Assembly: GCA_035317605.1 (NCBI GenBank)
Contig: DATHGT010000258.1
Span: forward strand, 18,477-82,476
DNA from: Candidatus Acidiferrum sp.
Lineage (GTDB): Bacteria > Methylomirabilota > Methylomirabilia > Rokubacteriales > CSP1-6
Reading direction: 5' to 3'
Length of the DNA: 64,000 bases
Below, piece after piece: positions 32,910-34,781 of the stretch (position 1 is the first letter of the stretch; each line of letters starts with the position of its first letter). Both the position numbers and the translations under genes were made by a program. The notes below the pieces were generated by a model, which was not told the origin of the DNA, did not search any database, and was given only the letters and a program-made list of their open reading frames with translations.

Positions 32910-34118
32910 GTGAACGCTCCCCTGCTCGACGGCCTCACCGTGCTCGACTTCACGCGCGTGCTCGCGGGCCCGTACTGCACGCGCCTGCTCGCCGACCTCG
33001 GCGCCCGCGTGATCAAGATCGAGCGGCCGGGCGAAGGCGACGAGATGCGCCGCGGGTTCTTGCAGCTCGACCCCGCGCGCACCGACCAGTCCACGTACTT
33101 CATCCGCATCAACGCCGGCAAGCGGAGCGTGGCCGTCGACCTGGCCCATCCCGACGCCCAACCATTGGTGTTCGATCTCGTCCGCCGGGCCGACGTGGTG
33201 GTCGAGAACTTCGTGCCGGGGGTGATGGCCAAGCTCGGGCTCGACTACGCCACCGTGGCGGCCGTTCGTCCGGGCATCGTGTACTGCTCGATCTCCGGAT
33301 ACGGCCAGACCGGCCCGCTCAGCAGCGCGCCCGCCTTCGCGCACTTGATCAGCGCGATGTCGGGGCTCATGCACCTCGAGCAGGGCGACGATCCCGCGCC
33401 GCGCGCCCCCTATCTGCAGGCCGCCGACGTGCTGGCCGGCACCCACGCGTTCGGCGCCATCCTGGCCGCAGTGGTGCGCCGCGGCCGCACCGGCGAGGGC
33501 GCGCGTCTCGACGTCTCGATGCTGGAGGCGCTGGTCGCCGCCGAGGACATCTCGTACGGCGGCGTGCTGAACGGTGCCGCCGAATACCCGGGGCCGCGGC
33601 CGGGCATGATCGTTCATCGGATCGGGGATCGGTACGTCGCCGTGCAGACCGTGGGCGCGCCGCAGCTGTGGGCGCGTGTCACGAGCGCGATGGGGCGGCC
33701 GGAGCTGGGGGCCGATCCGCGCTTCGCCACGCCCGCGGCCCGGCGAGAGCGCTGGGGAGAGATCCGGGAGATGGTCACCGCGTGGCTCGACACGTTCCCG
33801 GCCGTCGGGGCCGCGATCGACGCGCTACGCGCGGCGCGCGTCCCGTGCGCGCCGGTGCTGGCCCCGGCCGAGGTCGCCGAGCACCCGCACATGCGGGCGC
33901 GTCAGGCGTTTCCGGCGATCCCGCACCCGACGCGGGGCGAGGTGCGCATCACAGCCACGCCCGTGCACGTCGACGACCGGCCGGTGACGCCGGCGGGCGG
34001 CGCGCCCTACCGCGCGGGCGAGCACACCCGCGCGGTGCTGCGTGACGTGCTCGGCTACAAGGACGAACGAATCGCGGAGCTGGAGAGAAGCGGCGTGATC
34101 GAGGCGCCGCCCGACTAG
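32910..34118 (+). CDS. CoA-transferase family III (CaiB/BaiF) protein
   Basis: The protein shows LDGLTVLDFTRVLAGPYCTRLLADLGARVIKIE...VENFVPGVMAKLGLDY. GTG start. Confidence 0.85.
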   Translation: MNAPLLDGLTVLDFTRVLAGPYCTRLLADLGARVIKIERPGEGDEMRRGFLQLDPARTDQSTYFIRINAGKRSVAVDLAHPDAQPLVFDLVRRADVVVENFVPGVMAKLGLDYATVAAVRPGIVYCSISGYGQTGPLSSAPAFAHLISAMSGLMHLEQGDDPAPRAPYLQAADVLAGTHAFGAILAAVVRRGRTGEGARLDVSMLEALVAAEDISYGGVLNGAAEYPGPRPGMIVHRIGDRYVAVQTVGAPQLWARVTSAMGRPELGADPRFATPAARRERWGEIREMVTAWLDTFPAVGAAIDALRAARVPCAPVLAPAEVAEHPHMRARQAFPAIPHPTRGEVRITATPVHVDDRPVTPAGGAPYRAGEHTRAVLRDVLGYKDERIAELERSGVIEAPPD

Positions 34119-34531
34119 GCCTCGGCTTCCTTCTTTCGCTCCCGCTCCTGGACCTTGGCCACCGCGCGGCCCTTGTCCGGGTTCGGGTCCTTGATGATGC
34201 CGTAGGCCTCGCGCCCCTCGTGGTCTTCGGGCAGGTGCTCGGTGATCGGAAAGCCTTCCTCGTTCACGAAGAGCAGGCAGTGGCAGTACTTGTACTTCTG
34301 CATCTCGTCGCACGCGCAGATCCAGCGGCGGTTCTTGGCTTCTTCCTTGGCATCGGGATAGAAGTTACAGGGGCAGAGCGGGCGGCCGACTTCCTCGATG
34401 TGCTTGGCCAGCCCCATCACGACCGTCTCGGTCACGGTCACGTCGGGATGCAGCGACGTCCCTGACTTCTCGGAGTACTTGCGCGCATAGGCCCACATCT
34501 TGTCGATGTTCGCCTTCGAGGGCTCCGCCAT
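34115..34531 (-). CDS. Ferredoxin:thioredoxin reductase catalytic (beta) subunit-like protein (FTR/FDR family)
   Basis: The FTR [4Fe-4S] + redox-disulfide Cys motifs CPC...WICAC...YKYCHC are present. The SD GAGGAG sits before ATG 34531. It lies 13 nt downstream of the seleno-Grx-like gene. Confidence 0.8.
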   Translation of the reverse strand: MAEPSKANIDKMWAYARKYSEKSGTSLHPDVTVTETVVMGLAKHIEEVGRPLCPCNFYPDAKEEAKNRRWICACDEMQKYKYCHCLLFVNEEGFPITEHLPEDHEGREAYGIIKDPNPDKGRAVAKVQERERKKEAEA

Positions 34532-34544
34532 GCCTGGACTCCTC

Positions 34545-34781
34545 TCAGCCTTCCGCGAGTGCCGCGTCGATCGCCTTGGGGTTGAAGCCGGTCAGCTTCT
34601 TGTCGCCGATGAGCAGCACGGGCAGCGACAGGAGGCCCAGCGCCATCAGCTCCTGGCGGGCCTCCGGGTCACGTCCCACGTTCTTCTCGGTGAACACCAC
34701 GCCCTTTTGCGATAGATACTCTACCGCTCGGTGACAGGGCCCTCAGCCGATGTTGGTGTAGACGGTGATGCTCGGCGCCAT
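34545..34781 (-). CDS. Glutaredoxin/NrdH-like redox protein, predicted selenoprotein with an in-frame UGA (Sec) at 34743..34745 in a U-G-P-C active site
   Basis: ORF 34743..35084 ends ...MAPSITVYTNIG at a TGA. The same frame continues GPCHRAVEYLSQKGVVFTEKNVGRDPEARQELMALGLLSLPVLLIGDKKLTGFNPKAIDAALAEG* to the TGA at 34545. This is a Grx/NrdH layout (VYT-x-x-x-C-P-x-C-HRA) with TGA at the first Cys. GGAGG sits 7 nt before ATG 34781. An 8-bp hairpin lies 15 nt after the UGA. Confidence 0.65.
34710..34728 (-). promoter_or_regulatory. SECIS-like hairpin 3' of the UGA in the Grx-like gene
   Basis: On the - strand GCGGUAGA-gua-UCUAUCGC forms an 8-bp stem (one G-U pair) with a 3-nt loop, beginning 15 nt downstream of the UGA. 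Confidence 0.45.

Follow-up and report, generated by a model that had tools for sequence, protein, structure and literature searches.

A two-gene locus on the minus strand of a 64,000-nucleotide stretch (the window; 69.4% GC) of contig DATHGT010000258.1 from Candidatus Acidiferrum sp. (Methylomirabilota) was analysed. The first gene encodes a small redoxin with a glutaredoxin (Grx)/NrdH fold, which very probably carries selenocysteine (Sec) in its active site. The second encodes a homologue of the catalytic subunit of ferredoxin:thioredoxin reductase (FTRc). The Sec-redoxin coding sequence (34545..34781, 78 codons) starts with ATG at 34781-34779, and a Shine-Dalgarno sequence read from the DNA, GAGGAGG (34789..34795), precedes it with a 7-nt spacer. 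Its frame runs through MAPSITVYTNIG, a TGA (34745-34743) and then GPCHRAVEYLSQKG...LAEG to the stop TGA at 34547-34545, the full reading after the internal TGA being GPCHRAVEYLSQKGVVFTEKNVGRDPEARQELMALGLLSLPVLLIGDKKLTGFNPKAIDAALAEG. The internal TGA is residue 13, for which comparison of orthologues predicts Sec, and the active site would read U13-G-P-C16; the fold assignment comes from the translation, Pfam PF00462 and matches to solved Grx and NrdH chains. The gene would thus use UGA both for Sec and for termination, and no comparable hairpin is present at the terminal UGA. The FTRc-like gene (34115..34531, 138 aa) extends from ATG 34531 to TAG 34115. It opens 13 nt past the Sec-redoxin stop, and a second Shine-Dalgarno sequence, GAGGAG (34539..34544), is read within this intergenic spacer.

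In a mechanically generated list of open reading frames (ORFs), the start of the redoxin gene is hidden in an ORF at 34743..35084 that ends ...MAPSITVYTNIG. Only its last 12 codons are coding, the remainder being antisense to purC. An earlier note on this DNA had proposed that this ORF terminates at a TGA replacing the first active-site Cys, that the frame continues as a Grx/NrdH fold, and that a strong Shine-Dalgarno sequence precedes ATG 34781. It had also placed an 8-bp hairpin 15 nt past the UGA, now located at 34727-34709, and an FTR catalytic homologue (CPC, CAC and CHC motifs) with its own Shine-Dalgarno sequence 13 nt downstream. Each of these structural claims was borne out.

To follow the TGA across genomes, GTDB species representatives were scanned for the FTRc-like protein, and the best 80 of at least 577 loci were examined. 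TGA occupies the Sec position in 26/26 Methylomirabilota (Rokubacteria) species-representative loci. A TGA-containing Sec-redoxin gene was found in 7 further loci of Tectomicrobia type: four from Entotheonella/Entotheonellaceae, one from Tectomicrobia, one from a metagenome-assembled genome (MAG) labelled Gammaproteobacteria and one from an uncultured MAG. Codon-level comparison of 36 distinct Sec-redoxin sequences from two phyla placed TGA at codon 13 in 35, the exception being TGC in locus L006. Around this position, codons -9 to -1 and +1 to +60 showed conserved amino acids with synonymous variation. No homologue truly ending at the TGA, a possibility raised in the earlier note, was encountered; the TGA is kept with coding conservation on both sides. 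Homologues with Cys at the Sec position are known from the database search described below (P0001, which is the TGC gene of L006; P0004, CVPC; P0006, CMPC).

An ordinary stop at this TGA would leave a 12-residue peptide and/or an N-terminally truncated 'glutaredoxin' of 51-59 aa without an active site; a pseudogene or an assembly error would look alike. Public gene calls agree with such a stop. A protein database search with the Sec-redoxin returned 411 relatives, and among the best 120 inspected, about 110 (P0008-P0120) are called as proteins of 58-62 aa that start with MEYLSQKG, after the TGA and just past the active site, and are named 'glutaredoxin' or 'glutaredoxin 3'. However, the DNA upstream of each truncated call that was sampled carries a Shine-Dalgarno sequence with ATG, about 12 conserved codons, the TGA and G-P-C-H in frame. 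The truncated product would miss strand beta-1 and the entire redox motif, and the same TGA recurs in 35 independent assemblies. Furthermore, the upstream peptide is under purifying selection and the hairpin under selection at the nucleotide level. A true stop is therefore extremely unlikely, and hundreds of public gene calls truncate the family in this way, a systematic mis-annotation produced by standard gene finders.

A changed genetic code (4 or 25), in which TGA would stand for Trp or Gly, was also considered for this lineage. A few database entries render the TGA as W, and the Sec position is indeed W in P0002 and P0005 (NVGWGPC) and G in P0003 (NVGGGPC). The DNA of P0002 has TGA and its entry is not reproduced by code 11, so its W was introduced by gene calling. 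The GGA of P0003 is genuine and is found in a single 1.7-kb contig. Among ordinary stop codons in the window TGA ranks first, ending 15 of the 24 confident genes, the Sec-redoxin gene included. The genetic code is therefore not reassigned; this stop usage effectively refutes the explanation, to which we attach almost no probability.

Two single-contig variants, the TGC/Cys gene of L006 (57-299, P0001) and the GGA/Gly gene of L088 (822-1067, P0003), retain an intact hairpin downstream of the changed codon. Recent conversion of Sec to Cys, inactivation by mutation and sequencing error are all conceivable origins. More distant Cys-type homologues (L089 531-764 and the P0007 contigs), with CMPC or CVPC and 66-68% identity, do not adjoin FTRc. 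The genes downstream of them encode uncharacterised proteins of 125-138 aa, and one contig has MsrB (SelR) close by. In these homologues the hairpin has decayed.

The hairpin belongs to a putative bacterial-type Sec insertion sequence (SECIS; 34700..34736, minus strand), delineated from the single-sequence fold, the RNAalifold consensus, pairing and covariation, and codon entropy. The apical hairpin, GCGGUAGA-GUA-UCUAUCGC at 34727-34709, has 8 bp and starts exactly 15 nt past the UGA; its loop, GUA (34719-34717), lies 23 nt from the UGA. A lower stem of 4 bp (34736-34733 with 34703-34700) is seen in the RNAalifold consensus. The 71-nt region folds with -29.5 kcal/mol (z=-3.6), and 0/200 shuffles were equally good. 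Pairing is maintained in 36/36 sequences, with all 288 cells paired, as against 14-50% in control registers slid along the sequences.

Selection on the RNA is apparent within the stem. The third base of Leu +10 and the middle base of codon +7 form a compensatory pair, found as U:A in 25 sequences and as C:G in the other 11, and two more stem pairs show wobble-compatible switches (A-U/G-U and G-U/A-U). Synonymous entropy is 0 at codons +6, +8, +9 and +11 (GCG, GAG, TAT and TCG), compared to about 1 bit elsewhere. Codon +7 differs between sequences in the residue encoded (Met, Thr or Val); synonymous variation in the stem is limited to the covarying Leu +10 (CTA/CTG). Codons used in the stem are rare in the genome: within their families, CTA (Leu) reaches 0.5%, GTA (Val) 1.3%, TAT (Tyr) 17% and CAA (Gln) 6.5%. 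L089 provides a natural control: this Cys-type gene (CMPC) encodes the identical peptide AMEYLSQ but with CTC-TCA in place of CTA-TCG, and the stem is lost. Lack of conservation of the hairpin, against which the earlier note had warned, was thus not seen; the element is kept, with covariation and frozen synonymous sites. In the bSECISearch literature, bacterial SECIS elements are described as stem-loops shortly past the UGA with a small apical loop containing G (and U). The hairpin here appears to agree in stem position and in its GUA loop, and it shows selection at RNA level. From these sequence comparisons, the redoxin is very probably a genuine selenoprotein in which UGA 34745-34743 is recoded as Sec, and insertion is predicted to be directed by the coding-region SECIS hairpin starting 15 nt downstream.

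Sec use by the organism has strong, though indirect, support from two further in-frame-TGA redox genes predicted in the window, together with a 2026 review in which Methylomirabilota are selenoprotein-rich and one MAG of the phylum has 63 predicted selenoproteins. The first is an AhpD-like selenoprotein candidate of the CMD family (35745-36533, minus strand, 262 aa) with the motif N-A-C-R-Y-U (CxxU), in which the PF02627 match (E=5.5e-16) spans the TGA at 36279-36281. A hairpin lies at 36265-36246, and the TGA and the CUGCAGCCGGGAAGCUGCAG hairpin are kept in ten other Methylomirabilota species, where the gene follows FTRc at a distance of 0.7-1 kb in the same orientation. The second is a TlpA/ResA-like thioredoxin-fold candidate (7151-7690, minus strand) reading FWTYG-U-I-N-C (UxxC), with AhpC-TSA, Thioredoxin_8 and Redoxin matches across the TGA at 7478-7480. 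It has an N-terminal hydrophobic segment and a small hairpin, CCCGC-AGUU-GCGGG (7457-7444), 21 nt past the UGA. Same-frame ORF pairs at 26002, 29215, 43429 and 50591 were tried as read-through candidates and turned out to be ordinary adjacent genes. A 719-aa molybdopterin oxidoreductase (47455-49614, plus strand) resembling the formate dehydrogenase alpha subunit, though with 293 bits it stays short of the TIGR01591 cutoff (666), has no in-frame TGA and is thus a Cys-type or non-formate dehydrogenase member in an otherwise Sec-using genome.

The kind of redoxin was examined with Sec replaced by Cys. Residues 5-61 match Pfam Glutaredoxin PF00462 with 51.4 bits (threshold 22.9; E=1.3e-13), and residues 1-74 match the solved chains of Grx 7C10 (E=3e-13) and of NrdH 1H75 and 4HS1 (E~1e-10). 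The U-G-P-C active site resembles the CGPC of thioredoxin, and the C-terminal LTGFNPKAI aligns in part with the WSGFRPD motif of NrdH. Of the NrdH models, TIGR02194 gave 51.7 bits (cutoff 85.75) and NF007657 gave 44.4 (cutoff 131), both too low for membership. The best NCBIfam match, the YruB-family model TIGR02196, also stayed below its cutoff (68.8 versus 88.55 bits), and Uxx-star and other Grx-like selenoprotein models (NF041212, NF041211, NF047338, NF045501) gave 26-38 bits against cutoffs of 66-325. Sec is residue 13 of 78 here, as compared to three residues from the C-terminus in Uxx-star. Membership of NrdH proper was rejected in view of the scores below cutoff, UGPC in place of CVQC, the partial motif and the absence of recognised ribonucleotide reductase (RNR) neighbours. 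As the protein falls below the cutoff of YruB, NrdH and every Grx-like selenoprotein model, it is NrdH-like but outside these curated families. By analogy with NrdH, it would probably be reduced by a reductase rather than by glutathione.

The FTRc-like partner was assigned by PF02943, alignment to FTRc, and an AF2 model compared by Foldseek. It matches PF02943 (FeThRed_B) with 82.2 bits (threshold 22; E=3.4e-23), and its motifs C53-P-C55, C72-A-C74 and C83-H84-C85 contain six Cys and His84 that are invariant in 25 relatives. Alignment to Synechocystis FTRc (2PVG/1DJ7; E~6e-21) brings CPC, CAC and CHC all into register. A conserved C-terminal extension of 45 residues, PITE(H/Y)LPEDHEGR..YG..DP.P.KGR, follows. 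With the AF2 model (pLDDT 82.8), Foldseek ranked FTR-thioredoxin complexes first, followed by the ferredoxin:disulfide reductase (FDR) of Methanosarcina acetivorans, 4TPU, and then the Grx/FDR fusion 7PWE; probability was 1.00 to both 4TPU (E=1.4e-4) and 7PWE (E=1e-3), the FTRc matches being stronger. The score with the FtrB double-selenoprotein model NF041072 was far too low (42.8 bits, cutoff 160), and Cys stands at each redox-active position. No FTR variable subunit domain (FeThRed_A) was seen among the scanned ORFs, which cover the window incompletely.

In the window, the pair is surrounded by purC (divergent), a family-III coenzyme A (CoA)-transferase (convergent) and an enoyl-CoA hydratase. 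The stop of the FTRc-like gene (TAG 34117-34115, minus strand) overlaps that of the CoA-transferase (plus strand, ending at 34118) at 34115-34118, and there is therefore no space for an intrinsic terminator between them. A scan of 33900-35100 for a sigma-70 promoter and an intrinsic terminator found neither.

Linkage of the two genes was then followed through the examined loci. In all 26 Methylomirabilota loci the Sec-redoxin gene immediately precedes FTRc in the same orientation, the spacing ranging from a 4-nt overlap to about 100 nt. At the Tectomicrobia-type loci it stands tail-to-tail with FTRc, within about 100 nt, in 6/7; at the seventh, L058, it is about 2.3 kb away on the opposite strand. 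The redoxin partner is near the FTRc-like gene in 33/33 species carrying the pair. Precedents from a Methanosarcina FDR and from a Grx/FDR fusion (see below), together with this invariant adjacency, lead us to infer a chain from ferredoxin through the FTRc-like enzyme to the Sec-redoxin. We regard it as on balance probable that the locus is a two-gene operon for a Sec-redoxin and a [4Fe-4S] ferredoxin:disulfide reductase that reduces it. That the FTRc-like enzyme in particular would be the physiological reductant has, by analogy, a somewhat better than even chance.

Several observations weigh against this interpretation. None of selA, selB, selC and selD was found in the 64-kb window (about 30 ORFs checked) or in the fetched loci. 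Retention of the hairpin in L006 (TGC) and L088 (GGA) means that the hairpin alone is no proof of present Sec use. The 11 sequences with ACA/CTG in the stem belong to one subclade (10/11 also have the AhpD-like neighbour), and the compensatory change probably represents essentially one evolutionary event. No SECIS or other credible family was returned by Rfam, searched at the gathering threshold for the window and by E-value for 34500-34850; as no Rfam family matched, this null is uninformative. With regard to function, no ferredoxin gene adjoins the pair. Members of this FTRc family sharing 61-71% identity occur in Nitrospira and in Chloroflexota, Dehalococcoidia among them, at loci where no such redoxin is found within 4 kb; FTRc is therefore not obligatorily tied to the Sec-redoxin. 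Finally, trxB lies immediately upstream of the Sec-redoxin in 11/26 Methylomirabilota species, in the order trxB, Sec-grx, ftrC.

With respect to tRNA genes, ARAGORN detected no tRNA-Sec in the window or in any locus. Its 90-nt 'tRNA-Asn' call at 8996-9085 (plus strand) falls within an ORF for fumarate hydratase on the minus strand (8459-9499), and Rfam finds no tRNA there; it is therefore almost certainly a false positive.

The linkage to trxB raises the alternative that the Sec-redoxin is a thioredoxin-system protein reduced by NADPH-thioredoxin reductase, as is NrdH in E. coli, and that FTRc is merely co-regulated and serves another substrate. The upstream gene is a bona fide NADPH-thioredoxin reductase (TIGR01292, 412.6 bits versus a cutoff of 343), found on the same strand in L001 (4962-5897) and also in L016, L018, L020, L022-L024, L026-L029 and L032. 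The thioredoxin-like U-G-P-C, the TGFNP that aligns with WSGFRP of NrdH, and the FTRc homologues without Sec-redoxin in other phyla fit this alternative as well. Linkage to trxB is, however, absent from the window and from 15/26 species, whereas FTRc is always linked, even in a second phylum where the gene orientation has changed; a natural Grx/FDR fusion also exists. The two reductants are not mutually exclusive, as NADPH-thioredoxin reductase and FDR systems both operate in Methanosarcina. With trxB upstream in about 40% of Methylomirabilota species, NADPH-thioredoxin reductase is therefore a credible second but less likely sole reductant, and the alternative as a whole is unlikely. The earlier proposal of a two-gene operon in which the Sec-redoxin is the dedicated substrate of FTRc accordingly stands as to the pairing, which is universal in Methylomirabilota; the word 'dedicated' is conjectural, given the lone FTRc genes elsewhere and trxB in 11/26.

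Apart from trxB, the recurrent neighbour that could be identified by name is the AhpD-like selenoprotein. The form of the hairpin goes with subclade: ATG/CTA in the trxB-bearing loci and ACA/CTG in those with the AhpD-like neighbour. No RNR, methionine sulfoxide reductase or ferredoxin genes were recognised among recurrent neighbours at about 35 loci, most neighbour clusters not having been scanned with Pfam.

These neighbours bear on a further possibility, namely that the pair is an electron-supply module for RNR, comparable to the FDR/NrdH-like pair of Methanosarcina barkeri that feeds class III RNR. The precedent is in the literature, and the Sec-redoxin is NrdH-like in its matches to solved NrdH and in its GF(N/R)P motif. 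Against it, the recurrent neighbours include no recognised RNR gene (clusters beyond trxB and the AhpD-like gene were not Pfam-scanned), the window offers purC, CoA-transferase and enoyl-CoA hydratase instead, and the protein scores below the NrdH cutoff and is without CVQC. A role in RNR supply appears quite improbable.

For the favoured chain with FTRc as reductant, the following sequence of events can be envisaged. Reduced ferredoxin would hand two single electrons to the FTRc-like enzyme, and the cluster-adjacent disulfide Cys55-Cys85 (Cys57-Cys87 of Synechocystis FTR) would be opened. Cys55 would then attack the Se-S bond of the oxidised Sec-redoxin through a mixed intermediate, freeing the selenolate/thiol form, and the reduced Sec-redoxin would in turn reduce downstream targets. 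Where trxB is directly upstream, the Sec-redoxin may take electrons from both NADPH and ferredoxin. Selenenylsulfides, as in the literature on synthetic seleno-Grx3, have lower redox potentials than disulfides and would suit a donor at the level of ferredoxin. A more speculative and, in our estimate, rather doubtful extension is that the pair forms a low-potential selenol relay driven by ferredoxin. It would make a third system for disulfide reduction next to NADPH-thioredoxin reductase, dedicated to recycling the peroxidase-like selenoproteins, thiol- and selenol-based, of which Methylomirabilota have an unusually large set. The AhpD-like CxxU selenoprotein, a neighbour in 10 species and nearby in the window, might be one such target, and the relay would owe its origin to disulfides being more easily reduced than selenenylsulfides. 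If true, this would amount to 'tandem selenocysteine use' on a ferredoxin supply line.

The Sec-redoxin/FTRc locus is real, worth annotating and of moderate mechanistic interest. NCBIfam release 20 has no model covering the Sec-redoxin family, and a family model would mend annotation across Methylomirabilota and Tectomicrobia-type MAGs. The locus would tie disulfide reduction of the ferredoxin type to a selenoprotein acceptor in aerobic/microaerobic soil phyla, to which recent reports ascribe the largest selenoproteomes among bacteria. It also offers a compact, expressible two-protein system in which to ask for what reason a redoxin has Sec in place of Cys, and whether the lower Se-S potential is matched to ferredoxin. 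Furthermore, it is a clean example of a SECIS with codon-level constraint, in one gene that would use UGA for both Sec and termination.

The pair can be compared with several known systems. UxxC Grx and Grx-like selenoproteins have appeared in catalogues from the Sargasso and Global Ocean Sampling (GOS) studies onwards (Zhang and Gladyshev), and one of them, the Sec-Grx of Clostridium oremlandii, is biochemically characterised (Kim et al. 2011). The Sec-redoxin shares with these PF00462 selenoproteins the small Grx fold, Sec for the N-terminal Cys of CxxC, a coding-region SECIS past the UGA and Cys homologues. It differs from them in its U-G-P-C and NrdH-like C-terminus (TGFNP), unlike Grx of the glutathione type, in its hosts (Methylomirabilota and Tectomicrobia-type MAGs), in its fixed FTRc-like neighbour and in fitting no NCBIfam selenoprotein model.

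FDRs, found in archaea and bacteria, are Fe-S enzymes related to FTRc; one of them reduces MaTrx5 in Methanosarcina. The M. barkeri FDR, as papers citing Wei et al. (2015) describe it, passes electrons via an NrdH-like protein to class III RNR. The locus resembles the Methanosarcina FDR (Wei et al. 2015; Kumar et al. 2015, 4TPU; Prakash et al. 2018) in having an FTRc-type [4Fe-4S]/disulfide enzyme beside a small Grx/NrdH-like redoxin, a presumed ferredoxin donor and no variable-subunit gene in the annotated neighbouring ORFs. Here, in contrast, the partner is predicted to carry Sec, the FTRc-like enzyme is without the rubredoxin extension, and there is no RNR context. By sequence, the enzyme matches FTRc of cyanobacteria and plants (E~1e-20, 31-42% identity) more closely than it does 4TPU (E=1.7e-10, 25%).

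The Grx/FDR fusion of Desulfotalea psychrophila (7PWE) has its FDR domain at residues 86-175, so that the Grx domain is N-terminal, which is the gene order seen here. This fusion may be taken, by analogy, as Rosetta-stone support for a functional Grx-FDR couple. 7PWE is a single polypeptide and more distant from the FTRc-like protein (20-24% identity; sequence E=6e-4), its Grx domain has no match to the Sec-redoxin at E<=0.01, and the title of the entry does not mention selenocysteine. Plant and cyanobacterial FTR (1DJ7, 2PVG, 7C3F) is the best match of the FTRc-like protein in both sequence and structure, with the six Cys and the His kept. Canonical FTR, however, pairs its catalytic subunit with a variable one in a heterodimer, and its substrates are the thioredoxins of oxygenic phototrophs, whereas no variable subunit was seen in the annotated neighbouring ORFs here, the FTRc-like protein has its own 45-residue C-terminal extension, and its neighbour has a Grx and not a thioredoxin fold.

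In the literature, neither a UGPC NrdH-like subfamily beside an all-Cys FTRc across two phyla nor a Sec-bearing acceptor of an FDR was found described. The pair is nevertheless not categorically new, because UxxC Grx, FTR selenoproteins, FDR-redoxin couples, a Grx/FDR fusion and Sec-rich Methylomirabilota have already been documented. The earlier idea of a ferredoxin-driven reductase with a Sec-containing Grx-like partner is thus supported but less novel than implied, FDR-NrdH/Grx pairs and UxxC Grx being known. With the FtrB double-selenoprotein (NF041072; the GOS FTR selenoproteins) the locus shares a tie between the FTRc superfamily and selenium. There the reductase bears the Sec, while here the reductase is all-Cys and its partner would bear it.

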